Positions 1 through 6,560 of a stretch of 6,593 nucleotides of DNA are shown piece by piece. Origin of the DNA: a virus. Taxonomy: Duplodnaviria; Heunggongvirae; Uroviricota; Caudoviricetes. The DNA lies in IMG/VR virus record IMGVR_UViG_2541047119_000019, positions 1 to 6,593 of that record; one strand, written 5' to 3'. The notes beneath the pieces were generated by a model that saw nothing but the letters and a program-made list of their open reading frames with translations, did no database searches and was not told the DNA's origin. Each line of letters begins with the position of its first letter. Position 1 is the stretch's first letter. The translations under genes and the position numbers were made by a program.

Positions 1-299
1 GTTACCTCACAGCTGATACTGAGGGTTTCCGGGTCCTCTGCGAGCGATTCTGGCTGTTCGGCAGCTGCATCGAGAGTCACAGGAAGTAGCTGGGGGCTCT
101 CTGAAGAAGGTAATAGCAGCTTTCCCTCGCGCCATTGTTGTCGCCATTTGAACAACAGATTGGCGTTAATGCCATTTTCAAGAGCAAGTTTTGAGATGGA
201 TATCCCGGGTTCACAGGAGGCAGCAACGAGCTGCTGTTTAAATTCGGGAGGATAATTAGGGCAGCCTTTTCGCCTGCCGGGAGTCACATTTTTCTGCAT
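1..299 (-). CDS. IS-type transposase OrfA/TnpA, helix-turn-helix (HTH_Tnp_1 / PF01527-like), N-terminal ~99 aa; 3' end outside window
   Basis: Manual minus-strand translation from ATG (plus 299-297) gives MQKNVTPGRRKGCPNYPPEFKQQLVAASCEPGISISKLALENGINANLLFKWRQQWREGKLLLPSSESPQLLPVTLDAAAEQPESLAEDPETLSISCEV with no stop to position 1. The PEFK...GxSxxxLAxxxGI...LxxWRxQ pattern is typical of IS3/IS66 OrfA HTH proteins. It is absent from the ORF track because it has no stop inside the window. Confidence 0.7.
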   Translation of the reverse strand, partial: MQKNVTPGRRKGCPNYPPEFKQQLVAASCEPGISISKLALENGINANLLFKWRQQWREGKLLLPSSESPQLLPVTLDAAAEQPESLAEDPETLSISCEV

Positions 300-391
300 A
301 TCTGATACTTTGGTTCCCACTACTTATTTGGTGGGCACCACTTTGTCTAATTCGTCAGATTCTGACCAGACGGTTCAGGCTGTACGCTTAC
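1..391 (-). mobile_element. Terminal part of an insertion sequence (IS66-family-like), partial; body continues beyond window start
   Basis: The minus strand of 385-391 reads GTAAGCG, the motif I recall as the start of IS66-family terminal inverted repeats. It lies 92 bp upstream of the minus-strand transposase start at 299. The other end and any target duplication are outside the window, so the boundary is inferred. Confidence 0.5.
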
Positions 392-411
392 TTTTTAAGG
401 AAGGTAAATAC

Positions 412-972
412 ATGCTGATTGGCTATATACGCGTATCAACAAATGACCAGAACACCGGTTTACAAAGAAATGCGCTGGAATGTGCAGGATGTGAGCAGAT
501 TTTTGAAGACAAAATGAGTGGTAAAACGACACAGCGGCCGGGACTGAAGCGGGCACTGAAGAAACTAAAACCCGGTGACACGCTGATGGTCTGGAAACTG
601 GACAGGCTGGGGCGCAGTATGCGCCACCTTGTTGCGCTGACAGATGAATTACAGCAACAGGGGATAAATTTTCGTAGTCTTACTGACAACATTGATACGT
701 CAACCCCCATGGGGCGCTTCTTTTTTCACATAATGGGTGCGCTGGCAGAAATGGAGCGTGAATTAATTGTCGAACGGACACGGGCTGGTCTTGCAGCTGC
801 CCGTGAAAGGGGACGAACCGGCGGCAGACCCCGCCGTCTCACGCAGGAACAATACGAGCAGGTCGGGCGTTTACTGGCCGGGGGTGTCAGTCGAAGACAG
901 GTGGCACTTATTTTTGATATCGGTCTTTCAACCCTTTATCGTTATTATCCTGCGAGCGTTTCGGAAAAATAA
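412..972 (+). CDS. Serine-recombinase DNA invertase, Gin/Pin/Cin/Hin (Din) family
   Basis: From ATG 412 the product begins MLIGYIRVSTNDQNTGLQRNALECAGCEQIFEDK..., with the catalytic Ser in RVSTNDQ, the WKLDRLGRS and GINFRSLTD...MGRFFFH...ALAEMERELIVERT blocks, and a C-terminal HTH (GVSRRQVALIFDIGLSTLYRY). This is near-colinear with my recollection of Gin/Pin. SD AAGGAAGG at 397-404 sits 7 nt before the ATG. The track start at TTG 310 is rejected. Confidence 0.93.
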   Translation: MLIGYIRVSTNDQNTGLQRNALECAGCEQIFEDKMSGKTTQRPGLKRALKKLKPGDTLMVWKLDRLGRSMRHLVALTDELQQQGINFRSLTDNIDTSTPMGRFFFHIMGALAEMERELIVERTRAGLAAARERGRTGGRPRRLTQEQYEQVGRLLAGGVSRRQVALIFDIGLSTLYRYYPASVSEK

Positions 973-1071
973 GACGCTCTCTTTGTTGGGCCTTTACTGA
1001 ATTAACGCAAAATGGCGTTTATCGGTCTGTGGATATGATAATTCAGTTTATTCAGGAACAGGCTGATTATT

Positions 1072-3111
1072 ATGACGTCCAAATGGGTTCAACTATCATC
1101 AATGCCCGGAAACTTTACTGTTAAAGTTTCCGGTGGTACAGCGGCATTTCTTGAGGCTCCCTTTCCTCCGGCCGAAACAAAAGGAGGAATGACATTTGCT
1201 GACTGTCTCATCAGTTTTAATACACGGGATTGCCTGTGGGTAAGGCCAGTATCCGGTGATCCGAGTGTGGAAATTACCGGAGCGGGTATTGGTGCGGTCA
1301 TTCCGTTAAGTGCTGATGTTGCCGGTACTGCTGAACCGTCAGACTGGGATAATGCTGAAACACATACCCGTCCGTCAGGAAATGAAACTGCTTCCAGCTC
1401 CCCTTCCTGGTATTACGTGGTGGTTCTTGCTGGTCAGTCAAACGGTATGGCTTACGGTGAAGGTCTGCCACTGCCGGAGACATATGACCGCCCCGAACCG
1501 CGTATTATGCAGTTAGCCCGTCGCAGTACAGTCACGCCGGGAGGTAAAGCCTGTCAGTATAACGACATCATTCTGGCCGACCACTGTCTGCATGATGTGC
1601 AGGATATGAGTGGAAAAAATCACCCGAAAGCGGATGTGGCTAAAGGGCAATATGGCACCGTGGGTCAGGGGCTTCACATTGCCAAAAAACTGCTGCCGTT
1701 TATTCCGGCAGATGCGGGGATTCTGCTGGTTCCCTGCTGCCGTGGTGGTTCTGCATTCACGGCGGGTGCTGACGGCACGTACAGTGACAGCACGGGTGCT
1801 TCAGAGGACTCAGCCCGCTGGGGTGTGGATAAGCCGCTGTATAAGGACTTAATCAGCCGGACAAAAGCGGCACTGGCGAAGAACCCGAAAAACCGCCTGC
1901 TTGCTGTGGTGTGGATGCAGGGCGAGTTTGATATTGATGCGAAGCCGACGGAGCATTCTGCGCTGTTTCTGGCGATGGTGGAAAAATTCCGCGCAGACCT
2001 GGCTGAACAGGCGGAACAGTGTACCGGTGGCAGTGCTGCTGGCGTTCCGTGGATTTGTGGCGATACCACGTATTTCTGGAAACAGAAAAATGAACCAGCA
2101 TACCAGGCAATCTATGGCGGCTACAAAAACAAAACAGATAAAAACATTCATTTCGTTCCATTAATGACAGATGAAAATGGCGTGAATGTACCCACCAACA
2201 ATCCGGCAGAAGACCCGGATATTGAATCCATTGGTTATTACGGCTCAACGTGGCGTAACAGTGCCGCTACCTGGACATCTGCGGACCGGGCCAGCCATTT
2301 CAGTGCCTGGGCGCGCCGGGGTATTATTTCTGACCGTCTGGCCACGGCTGTTCTGACTCATGCAGGGCGAACCACAGTAAAAGCCGATGTTCCATCTTCT
2401 GAAACTGAAGCACCAGTGCCGTCACCTTCAGAAACTGAAGCAGTAACCACAACACTGCTGTCTTACCGTGTCAGTGAGTCAGAAGGAAATCTGAAAGCCC
2501 AGGGCTGGGAGCCGGCTGGCGGTAAAGCTGAAATTATCAGTGATGCAGGAGGCACAGGTGGTAAGGCAATGAAACTGACCAAGGAAACAGGTAAATCATC
2601 CTGGTATCTGGATCATGATGCCGGTACTGGTGCTGAACTGCTGAAAAATGGTGGTTTAATCAGTTGTCGTTTTAAAGTACCTGGCGACCTGGTGGCAAAC
2701 CAGTATGTCATGGCGCTTTACTGGCCGGTTTCCTCTCTGCCGCAGGGTGTCACCCTGACAGGGGATGCAGGGAATAATCTGCTGGCATCGTTCTACATCC
2801 AGACAGACGCAAAAGACCTGAATGTGATGTACCACAATGCAAAAGTGGCAACAAATAACCAGAAACTGGGAACCTTTGGTGCATTTGATAATGAATGGCA
2901 TACGCTGGCCTTCCGTTTTGCAGGAAATAACAGCCTTCAGGTTATTCCGGTTATTGATGGTCAGGATGGTGCCGCGTTTACCCTGACGCAGTCACCAGTA
3001 GGAACTTTCCCGGTGGACAAACTCCGCGTAACGGATATCACCAAAAATGCAACTTACCCGGTGCTGATTGACAGCATTGTGGTGGAAGTGAAAAAAGCGG
3101 TAACAGAATAA
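1072..3111 (+). CDS. SASA/SGNH-family carbohydrate esterase (sialate O-acetylesterase-like, resembling prophage NanS-p), with Pro/Ser/Thr/Glu linker and C-terminal putative carbohydrate-binding domain
   Basis: 679-aa ORF. It carries the YYVVVLAGQSNGMAYGEG block (GQSN catalytic-serine motif of sialate O-acetylesterase / DUF303-type SGNH hydrolases), then CRGGS and VVWMQGEFD blocks. A repetitive SSETEAPVPSPSETEA linker separates a ~220-aa C-terminal domain. Start choice (ATG 1072 versus internal ATG 1102) is uncertain. Confidence 0.78.
   Translation: MTSKWVQLSSMPGNFTVKVSGGTAAFLEAPFPPAETKGGMTFADCLISFNTRDCLWVRPVSGDPSVEITGAGIGAVIPLSADVAGTAEPSDWDNAETHTRPSGNETASSSPSWYYVVVLAGQSNGMAYGEGLPLPETYDRPEPRIMQLARRSTVTPGGKACQYNDIILADHCLHDVQDMSGKNHPKADVAKGQYGTVGQGLHIAKKLLPFIPADAGILLVPCCRGGSAFTAGADGTYSDSTGASEDSARWGVDKPLYKDLISRTKAALAKNPKNRLLAVVWMQGEFDIDAKPTEHSALFLAMVEKFRADLAEQAEQCTGGSAAGVPWICGDTTYFWKQKNEPAYQAIYGGYKNKTDKNIHFVPLMTDENGVNVPTNNPAEDPDIESIGYYGSTWRNSAATWTSADRASHFSAWARRGIISDRLATAVLTHAGRTTVKADVPSSETEAPVPSPSETEAVTTTLLSYRVSESEGNLKAQGWEPAGGKAEIISDAGGTGGKAMKLTKETGKSSWYLDHDAGTGAELLKNGGLISCRFKVPGDLVANQYVMALYWPVSSLPQGVTLTGDAGNNLLASFYIQTDAKDLNVMYHNAKVATNNQKLGTFGAFDNEWHTLAFRFAGNNSLQVIPVIDGQDGAAFTLTQSPVGTFPVDKLRVTDITKNATYPVLIDSIVVEVKKAVTE
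2398..2442 (+). repeat. Short in-frame tandem-like direct repeat (TCTGAAACTGAAGCA / TCAGAAACTGAAGCA, 30-bp period) encoding the SETEA linker
   Basis: Two 15-bp copies at 2398-2412 and 2428-2442, 14/15 identical, read directly from the sequence inside the esterase ORF. Confidence 0.85.
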
Positions 3112-3117
3112 AAAAAT

Positions 3118-3144
3118 CCCGCCGGTCATGATATGGCTGGCGGG
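3118..3144. terminator. GC-rich hairpin just after the esterase stop; possible terminator, orientation ambiguous
   Basis: CCCGCCGG (3118-3125), 11-nt loop, CTGGCGGG (3137-3144): 8 bp with one G-U pair. An A6 run precedes it, which would be a U-tract on the minus strand. No U-tract follows on the plus strand. Confidence 0.35.
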
Positions 3145-3257
3145 AGCTACCTAACCCATAAAGGAAAATAAAAATACTCCCGAAGGAGTGGTTATCAGTC
3201 GCTTCGATGTTTTTACCCGATAACGAATTATGTAGTCAATATCAAAGGTAAGGTTAT

Positions 3258-3440
3258 ATGACATTCGTTCATACAATGCTGCTTTATTTCTGCGCTGTGG
3301 TCAGTGCGTTATATCTGGTGAGCGGCGGTTATAAGGTCATCAGAAATTATATTCGCCGTAAAATTGATGATGCGGCAGCTGAAAAACTCAGTAAAACAGC
3401 ACAGGCACCGTCATCCCCAAACGACCCGACCCCGCTCTGA
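3258..3440 (+). CDS. Small hypothetical membrane protein (60 aa, one predicted N-terminal TM helix followed by a basic segment)
   Basis: ATG 3258 is preceded by AAGGTAAGG (3245-3253). The hydrophobic stretch TMLLYFCAVVSALYLVSGGY is followed by KVIRNYIRRK. No family recognised. Confidence 0.55.
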   Translation: MTFVHTMLLYFCAVVSALYLVSGGYKVIRNYIRRKIDDAAAEKLSKTAQAPSSPNDPTPL

Positions 3441-3475
3441 TAACGGGGCAATATACCTGCAAAAGGAGAATATTC

Positions 3476-3721
3476 ATGCCAGAGATTAAAGGCACGGTTA
3501 CTGAAGAGCTTGTCAAACAGGCACTTTATTCTGAAGAAGTGAACCGCGTGCTGAAGGCGCAGGTTCGCAAGGATTTTGAGGCACAAATCGACGCATATGT
3601 TGATGAAGTGCTGGCCCGAATGGTTGGCCGTTCTCCGGCTGAAAACAGCACGGAAAATGATCCTCAACCCGTAGAGCAACCAGAGCCGGTTCAGCCCGGA
3701 ACTGACGGTACTATGATGTAA
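3476..3721 (+). CDS. Small hypothetical acidic protein (81 aa), predicted helical N-terminal half and Pro/Glu-rich tail
   Basis: ATG 3476 is preceded by a strong SD AAGGAG (3463-3468, 7-nt spacing). It lies 35 bp after the previous small ORF, suggesting a two-gene unit. No family recognised. Confidence 0.6.
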   Translation: MPEIKGTVTEELVKQALYSEEVNRVLKAQVRKDFEAQIDAYVDEVLARMVGRSPAENSTENDPQPVEQPEPVQPGTDGTMM

Positions 3722-3730
3722 CAATACCGA

Positions 3731-3750
3731 CCGGCAGGTTTCCCTGCCGG
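3731..3750 (+). terminator. Candidate intrinsic terminator after the small-ORF pair
   Basis: Perfect 8-bp stem CCGGCAGG / CCTGCCGG with 4-nt loop TTTC, followed by the T-rich GTGAGTTTGTTAATG. Confidence 0.5.
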
Positions 3751-4076
3751 GTGAGTTTGTTAATGCACGTTTTGTGTATTTTCCCTCCTGGGAGAACAGG
3801 CAGGACATATCAGCATCCTGAAACAGGAAGCATTTTTGGGTTTGTATGTCTTGCCATTTTGAGATCGAGAACGGCGATAGATGAGCTGTAAGGGAGTCTT
3901 ACAGGCAGGGCAAACAGGCTCTTTCATCCATGATAAAGATCTCCTTTTTATGCATCTCTGCTTTACAGGAGACTGGGGAATATCATAGGATACGCCACGA
4001 GCTCGAAGTAAAGCATTGATGCAAAATTGTCTAAATCGGCCCAGAATAGTTCGCGCTATCTGGGTCGCTCTTTATG

Positions 4077-4112
4077 TATGTAGTATCCCATTGATTTGAA
4101 ACATACTACATA
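4077..4112. promoter_or_regulatory. Perfect 10-bp inverted repeat (TATGTAGTAT-N16-ATACTACATA); candidate operator or structured element
   Basis: Arms at 4077-4086 and 4103-4112 are exact reverse complements, in the AT-rich non-coding region upstream of com-mom. Confidence 0.3.
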
Positions 4113-4147
4113 TACGCGCGATCCTACCTTCACTATATAAAAAGTCA

Positions 4148-4165
4148 ATAAAATGATCATTTTAT
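4148..4165. promoter_or_regulatory. 18-bp perfect palindrome centred on a Dam site (ATAAAATGATCATTTTAT); candidate methylation-sensitive regulator binding site
   Basis: Read directly; a second GATC lies 11 bp away at 4166-4169 and another at 4120-4123. Confidence 0.35.
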
Positions 4166-4272
4166 GATCGTTTTCACCACCTAACTCTTCGTTTTCTTTA
4201 AGTAAATAATCACCTACCTGAATCATTGTTGATGACTTTTCAATCTATTTGTTGTATCAATTAAACAAATCG

Positions 4273-4297
4273 AATCGATCGTTTTTGTCGATCGATT
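4273..4297. promoter_or_regulatory. Inverted repeat AATCGATCG-N7-CGATCGATT with a GATC in each arm, 44 bp upstream of the com start; candidate operator / Dam-sensitive site
   Basis: Arms at 4273-4281 and 4289-4297 are exact reverse complements, with GATC at 4277-4280 and 4290-4293. Confidence 0.35.
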
Positions 4298-4340
4298 GCA
4301 TGAGAAAGGCATCAACAACAAAGCAGGAGGTTATGCGGCC

Positions 4341-4541
4341 ATGTATCGAAACATACGGTGCCGACACTGCAATAAGCTACTGGCACGGGCCAGTTTCAGT
4401 TATCTGGAAGTAAAATGTCCGCGCTGTAAAACCCTCAATCAAATCACATCTCCGAGCGCCACAGAGCACCCCACATACACAAGGAAATCCTGTCGTGGGG
4501 AACAGAAAGCAAGTCACATCCCGAATCATCAGCACGCCTGA
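4341..4541 (+). CDS. com: Com-like zinc-finger translational activator (phage Mu Com homologue)
   Basis: From ATG 4341 (SD AGGAGG 4324-4329) the 66-aa product is [34 protein letters not shown]...EHPT.... The two CxxC pairs and the IRC..CNKLL...CPRCK...EHPT pattern match my recollection of Mu Com. Its 3' end overlaps the next ORF out of frame, as com overlaps mom in Mu. The track start at TTG 4296 is rejected. Confidence 0.82.
4469..4500 (+). promoter_or_regulatory. mRNA stem-loop sequestering the predicted mom SD and GUG start (translation-inhibition-structure-like)
   Basis: CCCCAC (4469-4474) pairs with GTGGGG (4495-4500); the GTG is the predicted mom start. The 20-nt loop contains AAGGA (4481-4485). 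This is analogous to the Mu mom TIS that Com binding relieves. Confidence 0.5.
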
Positions 4542-5232
4542 ACTTATTCGCTATAACGACAATATCGTTGGTTATGGCTCCCGTGAGTTGCGGGTTGAGA
4601 CAATAAGTTGCTGGCTGGCCAGACTGGTCATCGTCAATAAACATTACAGCCACCGTTTCGTAAATAACTCCTACCTTCATCTGGGCATATTTTCAGAACG
4701 GGAACTTGTTGGCGTAATGCAATGGGGTTACGCCCTTAACCCAAACAGTGGTGCACGCGTCGTAACGGGTACGCAGAACCGAGAATATATGGAGCTTAAC
4801 CGGCTATGGCTGCATGACTGTATGCCGAGAAACTCCGAATCAAGGGCAATCAGTTACGCGCTCAAGCTAATCAGGCAGCTTTATCCGCAGGTACAGTGGG
4901 TTCAGTCGTTTGCAGATGAGCGTTGTGGCTGTCTTGGTGTCGTGTATCAGGCAAGCAATTTTGATTATGTAGGCAGCCATGAATCAATATTCTATGAACT
5001 TGATGGCGAGTGGTATCACGAGATTTGCAGGAATGCCATTAAACGAGGCGGACAACGAGGTGAACATCTGAGGGCTAATATTGACAGAGCCAATGTTCAT
5101 AAGTTCCGACAGTTTCGTTACATCCGGTTTCTGAACAAGAGGGCCAAAAAACGCCTCAACACAAAGCTATTCAAAGTCCAGCCTTACCCAAAACCACAAA
5201 CAGTTAAAACTGGTTTGAAAGAGAGTGAATGA
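4495..5232 (+). CDS. mom: Mom-like DNA modification protein (phage Mu Mom homologue; adenine N6-methylcarbamoyl/acetamido modification, anti-restriction)
   Basis: 245-aa ORF immediately downstream of and overlapping the com-like gene (4495-4541) in another frame. GTG 4495 is the first start codon after the frame opens at 4414, with AAGGA 9 nt upstream. Size is close to Mu Mom. The call rests mainly on synteny with the clearly Com-like gene; the Mom sequence was not matched from memory. Confidence 0.75.
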
Positions 5233-5263
5233 GCGCTTAAAAACTCATTCTAAAACTCAAAAG

Positions 5264-5308
5264 AAAAGCGCCGATTTAGTATCAAATAAGTTGCGTATCG
5301 GCGTTTTT
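5264..5308. terminator. A-tract / hairpin / T-tract element after mom; candidate bidirectional terminator or IS-end structure
   Basis: AAAAGCGCCGAT (5264-5275) pairs with ATCGGCGTTTTT (5297-5308), one G-U pair, around a long 21-nt loop. A second 7-bp hairpin GAATGAG/CTCATTC (5227-5250) spans the mom stop. Confidence 0.4.
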
Positions 5309-5411
5309 CAGCAGTATCAAATGAAATGCAAATCGGTATCAAAAAAATCGCCGCGCTATACTACAGGCATTTAAATTCCAGTTAAGACCAGGTGGTCAAC
5401 AGGAGCGTGAA

Positions 5412-6560
5412 ATGAGGCGCTTCGCAGGCGCATGTCGTTTCGTTTTCAATCGTGCTCTGGCGCTTCAGAATGAGAATCATGAGGCCGGTAATAAATACAT
5501 CCCTTACGGGAAAATGGCTTCCTGGCTGGTTGAGTGGAAAAACGCCACTGAAACGCAATGGCTTAAAGATGCCCCGTCACAGCCATTGCAACAGTCACTG
5601 AAAGAGCTTGAGCGGGCTTACAAAAACTTCTTCCGGAAGCGGGCTGCTTTTCCCCGATTCAAAAAGCGGGGACAGAATGATGCATTCCGCTACCCGCAGG
5701 GCGTTAAGCTCGATCAGGAAAACAGCCGTATTTTTCTGCCGAAACTTGGCTGGATGCGCTACCGGAACAGCCGTCAGGTCACGGGTGTTGTGAAAAATGT
5801 CACTGTCAGCCAGTCCTGCGGTAAGTGGTACATCAGTATTCAGACAGAAAGTGAAGTATCAACTCCGGTTCACCCTTCAGCATCAATGGTCGGACTGGAT
5901 GCTGGCGTGGCTAAACTCGCCACGCTGTCAGATGGCACAGTCTTTGGACCTGTAAACAGTTTTCAGAAAAACCAGAAGACGCTGGCGAGACTTCAGCGAC
6001 AGTTAAGCCGCAAGGTCAAATTCAGCAACAACTGGCAGAAGCAGAAACGCAAAATACAGCGACTGCATTCCTGTATCGCAAATATCCGCAGGGACTACCT
6101 TCACAAAGTCACAACGACCGTCAGCAAAAACCACGCAATGATAGTCATTGAGGATTTGAAGGTCAGCAACATGTCAAAGTCAGCAGCGGGTACGGTCAGC
6201 CAGCCGGGGCGCAATGTCCGGGCAAAATCAGGTTTAAACCGTTCGATACTGGATCAGGGCTGGTATGAAATGCGCCGCCAGCTTGAGTACAAGCAGCTCT
6301 GGCGTGGCGGTCAGGTGCTTGCTGTTCCGCCAGCGTACACAAGCCAGCGTTGCGCGTGCTGTGGTCATACAGCGAAAGAAAATCGCCTGTCACAAAGTAA
6401 ATTCAGATGCCAGGCATGTGGATATACAGCGAACGCTGATGTAAATGGCGCTCGTAACATTTTAGCGGCGGGGCACGCCGTTCTTGCCTGTGGGGAGATG
6501 GTGCAGTCAGGCCGCCCGTTGAAGCAGGAACCCACCGAAATGATTCAGGCGACAGCCTGA
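5412..6560 (+). CDS. tnpB: TnpB (OrfB) of an IS200/IS605-family element; RuvC-like RNA-guided endonuclease fold with zinc ribbon
   Basis: 382-aa ORF with SD AGGAG (5401-5405). RuvC-like motifs are present: VGLDAGV (D), IVIEDLKV (E) and [10 protein letters not shown] (D), plus zinc ribbon CACCGH...CQACGY. The in-frame upstream translation (ILQAFKFQLRPGGQQERE, 5358-5411) looks like the conserved TnpB N-terminus but has no ATG/GTG/TTG after the stop at 5322-5324. Confidence 0.9.

Follow-up and report, generated by a model that had tools for sequence, protein, structure and literature searches.

The gene at 1072..3111 (+ strand) of the 6,593-nucleotide stretch of viral DNA analysed here (the window) very probably encodes an intact NanS-p-type sialate O-acetylesterase of three modules, carried by a Mu-like prophage in a cassette that is shared with Stx phages, and mosaic in origin. 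This reading draws on what the domains match, on the retention of the catalytic and binding residues, on gene context and distribution, and on the mosaic pattern, as set out below. The frame is intact, encodes 679 amino acids, has exactly the coordinates given in the initial annotation, and corresponds to ECs_4993, a gene of Sp18, a Mu-like prophage in E. coli O157:H7 Sakai. NanS-p esterases are believed to allow EHEC growth on O-acetylated mucin sialic acids. The enzyme is of a known kind; what is new is the architecture, with its swapped N-terminus.

Esterase core, second linker and C-terminal domain

The SASA/SGNH esterase domain occupies aa 113-430 (1408..2361, +). The Pfam SASA model (PF03629) is matched with 45.9 bits (cutoff 24.8); the top structural relative is E. 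coli NanS (PDB 3PT5), which matches aa 104-428 at an E value of 2e-118. The esterase nucleophile, Ser123 (codon 1438-1440), lies in the GQSN motif at aa 121-124, followed by a QGEFD block at aa 283 and by His409 (codon 2296-2298) in the RASH motif at aa 406; the latter is block IV, which occurs in the RASH and RSSH variants in NanS and NanS-p. Overall, the domain is 80.8% identical to that of NanS-p from the Stx phage Min27. The GQSN-motif esterase proposed in the initial annotation is therefore confirmed by a significant SASA/SGNH profile match, with the catalytic motifs retained.

The C-terminal part of the protein, aa 459-679 (2446..3108, +), is a lectin-like jelly-roll domain containing DUF6645 (PF20350, 233.8 bits at aa 524-642), and its roughly 221 residues agree with the earlier estimate of about 220. 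Residues 459-674 match PDB 6YP6, the solved lectin-like C-terminal domain of NanS-p, at an E value of 3e-112; with E values of this order and that for 3PT5, a chance origin of the domain calls is ruled out, and the resemblance to NanS-p-type enzymes noted previously holds for both structures and both profiles. All four aromatic residues proposed for the sugar site (Y545, Y550, Y575 and F646) are conserved, and identity to the Min27 copy is 78-79%. The domain is not unusual for NanS-p, and the suggestion that it might set a different carbohydrate specificity is unsupported, given the strength of the 6YP6 match, the identity of about 79% and the retained aromatics. No NCBIfam model matches the protein, a search of the window against Rfam gave no match, and no signal-peptide-like or transmembrane segment was seen in the esterase.

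Between the two domains lies linker 2, aa 431-458 (2362..2445, +), in which the ETEA repeat described earlier takes the form of SETEA, once at aa 443 and again at aa 453. The second unit is produced by a 30-bp duplication, marked by the 12-nt repeats GAAACTGAAGCA at 2401-2412 and 2431-2442, and is missing from the commoner 669-aa allele. The repeat is not reported by TRF because it amounts to only about 1.5 copies, and was established by eye and from the 669-aa allele. That shorter form was also considered as a start call at Met11, which was ruled out, the difference being a 10-aa deletion in the linker.

Among known systems, the Stx-phage NanS-p proteins (933W L0105/z1466; phi24B vb_24B_21, i.e., gp84; Min27 gp43), which are prophage-borne in STEC, have the same SASA/SGNH core with GQSN, QGEFD and RASH, the same DUF6645 C-terminal domain with its aromatics, and the same downstream order of DUF1378 and DUF826 genes. 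Chromosomal NanS (YjhS, 3PT5) aligns with the catalytic domain over its full length, and the serine of GQSN and the histidine of SHFS both fall within the alignment. NanS is a single-domain chain of 337 residues without an N-terminal or lectin-like C-terminal domain, and its gene, on the chromosome, belongs to the regulon for sialic-acid catabolism.

The N-terminal domain and its distribution

Whereas Stx-phage NanS-p begins with DUF1737 (PF08410), the window copy has in its place an unrelated domain of about 78 residues (aa 1-78; 1072..1305, +), predicted to form a cupin-like beta-barrel of six strands. DUF1737, which the initial annotation had listed for checking, gives no match in the window esterase even at E<=1, as compared with 65.4 bits in Min27 NanS-p; aa 1-64 have no similarity to the Min27 protein, and from aa ~113 onward the two are 74% identical. 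Linker 1, aa 79-112 (1306..1407, +), is Ser/Thr/Pro-rich and modeled at low confidence (pLDDT <50), and has an SSSP motif (SSP at aa 109-111) immediately ahead of the esterase domain. The swapped N-terminus, rather than the C-terminal domain, is the real difference from known NanS-p.

The N-domain is an orphan. It has no Pfam family, and fold searches returned only generic cupin-like matches, with no significant match to a known decoration or tail-adaptor protein; comparison with the prophage's tail and baseplate ORFs gave no similarity. The domain is under purifying selection (dN/dS 0.27), and its GC3 is 0.35-0.375 as against 0.54 for the esterase. A 1445-aa protein found in nine stretches (P0005) was rejected as a relative, its match being to the linker region and judged compositional, from Ala/Gly/Val/Thr-rich repeats.

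Rare in sequence searches, the N-domain turned up in E. coli and Salmonella, only within Mu-like prophages, and otherwise in a single Shigella fragment without context; it is specific to such prophages, in DUF1737's place. Of 5426 complete E. coli genomes, 205 (~4%), mostly STEC, have its DNA. The same succession of N-domain, linker and GQSN esterase is found in WP_001284083.1 (E. coli HH35), in its relatives P0009 (Shigella sonnei) and a pseudogene of E. coli DEC6C, and in P0008 (Salmonella enterica). Wherever context is known the domain adjoins a Mu-type invertase, as in Salmonella (L004), DEC6C (L007) and HH35 (L012), and in two short contigs (L008 and L010) the invertase is the sole visible context. 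In the N-domain, the HH35 copy shares 61.5% identity with the window copy and the Salmonella copy 25-29%; over the esterase domain HH35, with the motif variants QGEAD and RDSH, reaches only 69.7%, and it likewise has DUF6645 and adjoining DUF1378 and DUF826 genes. HH35, Salmonella and their kin represent diverged lineages of N-domain esterases.

The cassette, its prophage and the mosaic pattern of the gene

Two small genes follow the esterase, and were omitted from the initial annotation, between the esterase and com. The first, at 3258..3440 (+), encodes a DUF1378 membrane protein of 60 aa (PF07125, 131.5 bits) with one N-terminal transmembrane helix (Kyte-Doolittle 2.02 at aa 3-21), and shares 53% identity with its positional counterpart in Min27. 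The second, at 3476..3721 (+), encodes an 81-aa DUF826 protein (PF05696, 56.7 bits), 47% identical over 51 aa to its Min27 equivalent. The gene order esterase-DUF1378-DUF826 is common to the window and Min27, and identities of the two small proteins to Stx-phage copies range from about 39 to 53%, depending on the alignment. Beyond the cassette, on the opposite strand, is an ECs_4996-like ORF without a Pfam family (3760..4226, -), which is intact at 154 aa in Sakai, is split into ORFs of 55 and 56 aa in the window, and is annotated as frameshifted in a 100%-identical locus (L001).

The flanking genes are those of a Mu-like phage. To the left is a serine DNA invertase of the Gin/Pin type (412..972, +; ECs_4992 equivalent), with Pfam Resolvase (174.9 bits) and HTH_7 matches, a PHROG_125 DNA invertase match and an agreeing Sakai annotation. 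To the right are com (4341..4541, +; PF10122 Zn_ribbon_Com, and so annotated by PGAP) and mom (4495..5232, +; PF25680 Mom, 259.5 bits), the product of the latter being 79% identical in amino acids to Mu Mom. Within the window, nucleotide homology to Mu is confined to gin (74.6% identity over 413-801) and mom (71%). In phage Mu the gin-com spacer is only 94 bp, and is here occupied by the cassette and the one minus-strand ORF; because of that short spacer the esterase looks like inserted cargo, as first proposed. Likeness to other genomes stops at 5360, the right end of the prophage, and this right end is found at differing chromosomal sites (lsrC, yehI and sorM). The Sakai record labels the element 'prophage Sp18, Mu-like phage', and the prophage shows the features of the Sp18 type, namely Mu-type tail and baseplate genes, an invertible tail-fibre segment, a Gin-type invertase, right-end com-mom and variable insertion sites. 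Sp18 was reported to be intact, with its DNA packaged; O157 Sakai sheds Sp18-type particles spontaneously (PMC2669165).

The host element is a transposable, myovirus-type prophage, as opposed to the lambdoid phages that carry Stx-phage NanS-p. The atypical location pointed out in the initial annotation was borne out, as the gene adjoins an invertase and lies between it and com-mom, in contrast to the vicinity of lysis genes in lambdoid prophages; the canonical NanS-p site, in the lambdoid late region after stx/Q and ahead of holin S, is occupied in Min27 (between stx and holin) and is not the site found here.

Pairwise identities differ along the cassette. The window esterase is closer to that of Min27 (80.8%) than to that of HH35 (69.7%), whereas DUF1378 is closer to the HH35 copy (71.7% versus 50.8% for Min27), as is DUF826 (76.2% versus 38.8%). 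In these comparisons the N-domain, DUF1378 and DUF826 appear to group by phage type, and the enzyme body (aa ~113-679) with lambdoid NanS-p, a split grouping from which the gene is taken to be a mosaic. Such a pattern would imply recombination between paralogs, with breakpoints at the boundary of the N-domain and esterase and at the end of the ORF. Uneven evolutionary rates, rather than recombination, could partly underlie the closeness of the body to lambdoid copies.

Proposed function and significance

From the homology with NanS and NanS-p proteins that have been assayed, and from the identity of about 81% to alleles reported active, we infer esterase activity on O-acetylated sialic acids. 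The SGNH/SASA core, with Ser123 as nucleophile and His409 as base, would O-deacetylate Neu5,9Ac2 and the sialoglycans of mucin, and the lectin-like jelly-roll domain probably keeps the enzyme on its glycan substrate. Since no signal peptide is present, release would be through phage lysis, and the benefit may fall to the lysogen population and/or to the phage in mucus. Published NanS-p assays concern the EDL933 and O104:H4 alleles, as cited in reviews; a literature search for ECs4993 found no mention, although one in Rangel 2016 or Saile 2016 is possible.

How the N-domain fits into this scheme is where readings diverge. With a probability that we place a little short of even, the gene is purely a lysogenic-conversion moron, encoding a soluble cytoplasmic enzyme that is freed by the lysing fraction of lysogens and serves the bacterial population only, for which O-acetylated sialic acids would be unlocked as a carbon source; the N-domain would then serve for oligomerisation or stability, or be a remnant of the fusion event, with no role in the virion. 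This account leaves unexplained, however, both a phage-type-specific N-module that is retained through exchange of the body and the constant presence of DUF1378 and DUF826 in the cassette.

Possible, though rather unlikely, is display of the enzyme on the virion, with the N-domain acting as the Mu-type counterpart of DUF1737 and docking the esterase on an Sp18-type capsid or tail. The phage would then bear a mucin-binding, deacetylating decoration, which may later be shed by cleavage within the Ser/Pro-rich linkers. The model is phi24B gp84, a NanS-p homologue reported, in a single 2026 preprint, as a capsid decoration protein in which DUF1737 forms a capsid-bound hexamer and SSP-containing linkers are proposed as processing sites. 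In the window protein it is precisely DUF1737 that has been swapped out, and the SSSP motif is retained ahead of the esterase domain, but linker 2 has no SSP motif. Further consistent with display, the replacement domain occurs, where context is known, only in Mu-like prophages and in three diverged lineages, and has remained linked to the phage backbone, the enzyme body for its part grouping with lambdoid NanS-p; yet its fold lacks a significant match to known decoration or tail-adaptor proteins, and it showed no similarity to the tail and baseplate ORFs of its own prophage. Purifying selection on the domain, the packaging of Sp18 DNA into particles and the position of the gene directly after the tail-fibre/invertase module all favor a virion role. 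Mu-family phages are not known to have decoration proteins, which counts against it.

G7C gp63.1-like SGNH-esterase tailspikes are a further known system, in which a phage carbohydrate deacetylase is fused to a phage-specific N-terminal module. Their relationship to the window esterase is not detectable beyond the superfamily and their substrate class is different; for the window esterase, attachment to a virion is hypothetical. That the window esterase is a receptor-modifying tail enzyme of this kind, acting on O-acetylated O-antigen, capsule or colanic acid to aid adsorption, is improbable: its gene does come right after the host-range module of tail fibre and invertase, a weak PHROG 'tail protein' match was obtained (phrog_25867, E 4.3e-5, aa 210-311) and the idea is raised for NanS-p in a review, but the catalytic core shares about 81% identity with enzymes for which activity on sialic acids is reported, NanS (3PT5) is the closest structure, trimerisation or beta-helix tailspike features are absent, and the N-domain is unrelated to the prophage's baseplate or fibre proteins.

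Within the preferred reading, a mosaic NanS-p-type esterase on a Mu-like prophage, the gene is a natural domain swap, in which the same enzyme and lectin body is joined to a different, phage-type-specific N-module. We tentatively suggest, as a doubtful extension, that the orphan beta-barrel might be a second and unrelated virion anchor, holding the esterase-lectin unit on Mu-type (myovirus) particles as DUF1737 is reported to do on phi24B-type podovirus capsids; DUF1378 and DUF826 would then be indispensable companions, helping for instance with assembly or release. Were the N-domain such an anchor, unrelated gut phages would have been selected for carrying a mucin-active enzyme on their particles, which would not be a bacterial "moron" benefit, and NanS-p would be a modular, virion-displayed mucin-glycan enzyme of which gut E. 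coli phage morphotypes have swapped the anchor only. Even without an anchor role, ECs_4993 is an extra intact paralog to consider in relating nanS-p dosage to growth on Neu5,9Ac2, and nanS-p paralogs are substrates for recombination between prophages.

Some strains can do without the gene, which is split by ISEc8 in C1-057 and frameshifted in DEC6C. The DEC6C locus was also considered as an N-domain gene lacking an esterase, which was ruled out, the copy being a full one with a frameshift that continues past the end of its contig.

Enzyme body and N-terminal domain

The esterase of this Mu-like prophage belongs with a known enzyme family as a member-like variant and lacks two of the usual features, the N-terminal DUF1737 and the position in a lambdoid late region. 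The initial annotation had placed a large esterase at 1072..3111, and an uninterrupted plus-strand ORF of 679 aa is indeed found there. Judged by sequence, its body is an ordinary NanS-p. The expected SASA/DUF303-type family was recovered with Pfam (PF03629, aa 116-312, 45.9 bits against a cutoff of 24.8), DUF6645 (PF20350) covers aa 524-642 (233.8 bits), and aa 62-677 match PHROG_143, a family of unassigned function, with 1027 bits. Among PDB sequences, E. coli NanS/YjhS (3PT5) aligns end to end with aa 104-428 (E 2e-118), and the NanS-p C-terminal domain structure 6YP6 with aa 459-674 (E 3e-112). Compared with the NanS-p of the lambdoid Stx2 phage Min27 (645 aa; DUF1737, SASA and DUF6645), identity is 74% from about aa 113 to the end of the protein, with 80.8% in the esterase domain and 78-79% in the C-terminal domain. 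The SGNH blocks GQSN (Ser123), QGEFD and RASH (His409) are all kept, in the variants described for NanS and NanS-p (PMC10462455). By homology, the removal of 9-O-acetyl groups of sialic acids by a Ser-His SGNH esterase, helped by a lectin-like module, can be predicted with confidence; for the NanS-p alleles of EDL933 and O104:H4, activity on Neu5,9Ac2 and on mucin glycans has been reported (review PMC8065619).

The suggestion that the C-terminal domain sets a different carbohydrate specificity found no sign in its favor, because identity to Min27 is high there (about 79%) and the four aromatics of the sugar site proposed for vb_24B_21 (Y510, Y515, Y540, F611; PMC10462455) are all conserved, as Y545, Y550, Y575 and F646. 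No signal-peptide-like or transmembrane segment was found in the esterase. The linker described as a "PS/ETEA repeat" does contain a repeat, its nature being a 30-bp duplication with 12-nt repeats at 2401-2412 and 2431-2442. This duplication (2401-2442) accounts for a length polymorphism of 679 versus 669 aa, the single-copy 669-aa allele (protein P0045) being commoner in public assemblies, on at least 1000 contigs. In O157:H7 strain C1-057 the same gene is split by ISEc8 (locus L002, 6682-11171), with window 2665-2672 aligning on both sides of the element, as expected if 8 bp of target had been duplicated; this strain can thus do without the gene.

The real difference from Stx-phage NanS-p is the N-terminus. 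Residues 1-64 show no similarity to Min27 NanS-p and, where DUF1737 might have been expected, find no match in Pfam, not even at E<=1, against 65.4 bits for DUF1737 of Min27. The N-domain (aa 1-78) is very rare: tblastn of 50,697 phage records found it in only two, both with this Mu-like insert; a word-indexed search of 5.8 billion proteins returned E. coli fragments only, to which a profile search added Shigella sonnei (60% identity) and Salmonella enterica (29%, local alignment); and phmmer among 1.84 billion representatives gave five proteins. In every case with known context the N-domain gene adjoins a Mu-type invertase. The Salmonella locus (L004) carries baseplate Gp45/46/J/48, fibre and invertase genes; E. 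coli DEC6C (L007) has MuB, Gam, baseplate and invertase, with the N-domain gene a pseudogene; in E. coli HH35 (L012) the copy is intact (684 aa), and DUF1378, DUF826, com and mom come after it; and two short contigs (L008, L010) show upstream invertase only. Substitution patterns indicate that the N-domain is under purifying selection, with dN/dS against Salmonella of 0.27 (0.15 in the adjacent esterase segment) and dN against the Shigella/HH35 type of 0.27-0.30, synonymous sites being saturated.

Mu-like prophage setting

The atypical placement of the esterase beside an invertase, rather than in a lambdoid late region, was borne out by a Mu-like setting, as were the neighbors proposed for it: a Resolvase and HTH_7 invertase (412-972, Pfam; start codon at 412), com (4341-4541) and mom (4495-5232), the last two from Pfam and annotation. 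Many STEC chromosomes match window 391-5360 at 100% identity. The right end of Sp18, the Mu-like prophage of E. coli O157:H7 Sakai, matches it at 99%, and Sp18 is reported to be intact with its DNA efficiently packaged (PMC2669165). In matching genomes, the Mu-type genes upstream are those for tail sheath, tube, tape measure, baseplate and tail fibre. Host DNA begins directly after mom, at loci that differ by strain (lsrC, yehI, sorM), which fits expectation for a transposing phage. On the right, an IS200/IS605-family tnpB (5412-6560; NF040570, 372 bits) abuts the prophage end (5360), and the 5' part of this element was apparently the insertion site of the prophage, since the ORF aligns with the profile from position 15 onward only. 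On the left, window 1-392 is an end of the IS66-family ISEc8 (99.5% identity to the copy in L002) and stops about 20 bp short of the start codon of the invertase; it therefore parts the invertase from the invertible tail-fibre segment found upstream in other strains. Between about 5279 and 5345 there are three GTATCAAA-type repeats, which resemble the end repeats that MuA binds. Five GATC sites stand upstream of com (4120, 4155, 4166, 4277, 4290), the last two within a palindrome, and this cluster (4120-4293) resembles the region of the mom promoter in phage Mu, which is under Dam/OxyR control. In two Stx-converting prophage records of about 93 kb (LC727881.1, LC727895.1) this Mu-like phage is nested inside, and would travel along if packaged.

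The esterase gene has long been part of the Sakai reference genome as ECs_4993, "hypothetical protein", and its name in PGAP annotation is either "sialate O-acetylesterase" or "DUF6645 domain-containing protein". The presence of nanS-p in non-Stx prophages is already acknowledged in the literature; no mention of ECs4993, of a Mu-like location or of a non-DUF1737 N-terminus was found in the searchable library of papers. Among 5426 complete E. coli genomes, N-domain DNA occurs in 205 (246 places) and Sp18-type com-mom in 233 (285 places).

Cassette and mosaic structure

In phage Mu itself, 94 bp separate gin from com, and Mu homology in the window is restricted to gin (413-801, 74.6%) and mom (4564-5192, 71%), so that about 3.4 kb (972-4341) is extra relative to Mu. 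This segment holds the esterase, DUF1378 (3258-3440) and DUF826 (3476-3721), both Pfam matches lying between esterase and com, and a minus-strand ECs_4996-like ORF (3760-4226), frameshifted here into ORFs of 55 and 56 aa. In Sakai ECs_4996 is intact (154 aa), and its two CPAC motifs hint at a zinc ribbon; no family match was obtained for the ECs_4996-like ORF, and in the HH35 lineage its place is taken by another small ORF. DUF1378 carries a single strong transmembrane helix at its N-terminus. Two G+C-rich hairpins between the esterase stop and DUF1378 (3118-3144, 3176-3189) look like minus-strand or bidirectional intrinsic terminators rather than plus-strand ones, because a plus-strand A-run precedes each. 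The esterase-DUF1378-DUF826 trio is shared, with similar spacing, by Min27, where the order is stx2AB, esterase, DUF1378, DUF826, holin S, lysozyme R. No closer copies of DUF1378 or DUF826 were found in sequenced phages beyond the two Stx-phage records carrying the same Mu-like insert.

Three-way identities among the window, its Mu-type relative HH35 and Min27 show that the flanking parts track phage type, while the Sp18-type enzyme body groups with lambdoid paralogs. For window-HH35, window-Min27 and HH35-Min27 in turn, these are 71.7%, 50.8% (global; 53% local) and 50.8% for DUF1378, and 76.2%, 38.8% (global; 47% local) and 40.5% for DUF826; the N-domain is 61.5% identical in the first pair and unrelated in the others. 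The esterase domain gives 69.7%, 80.8% and 70.3%, and the C-terminal domain 72.7%, 79.3% and 68.5%. DNA similarity to Stx-phage nanS-p starts at 1406-1427 and stops at 3092-3100, and GC3, at 0.35-0.375 over the N-domain and linker, goes up to 0.54 in the esterase domain. The simplest reading of these sequences would be recombination or gene conversion among the many STEC nanS-p paralogs, the left breakpoint falling where N-domain and esterase meet. A possible example of such recombination between lambdoid and Mu-like prophage paralogs is a chimeric NanS-p (P0073; L011 608-2539, GCA_012426925.1 AASMET010000054.1), in which a lambdoid late region with DUF1737 and the first ~217 aa of a 933W-type NanS-p joins, inside the esterase gene, a Mu-type remainder followed by DUF1378, DUF826, com, mom and host flagellar genes. 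The chimera is known from one draft assembly only and may be an assembly artefact.

Possible deployment of the enzyme

The NanS-p gp84 of phi24B has been reported, in a 2026 preprint, to be a capsid decoration protein whose DUF1737 binds central hexons as a hexamer, and which is proteolytically processed, with SSP-containing linkers as proposed processing sites (10.64898/2026.04.10.717836). Relative to gp84, the Mu-type copy swaps exactly the DUF1737 anchor for a phage-type-specific domain and, as in SSP linkers of the gp84 type, retains an SSSP motif directly before the esterase domain. By this analogy the N-domain might tentatively be viewed as a virion anchor, a role made plausible by the exact replacement and the retained motif, if still a doubtful one. 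The alternative is a soluble conversion enzyme set free at lysis, with the N-domain as an oligomerisation or stabilising module. DUF826 homologues in PV340545-PV340554 (hits H155-H162; 44-50% identity over 54 aa) carry the depositors' unverified label 'head completion protein', which would be relevant if the role of the cassette is virion-related.
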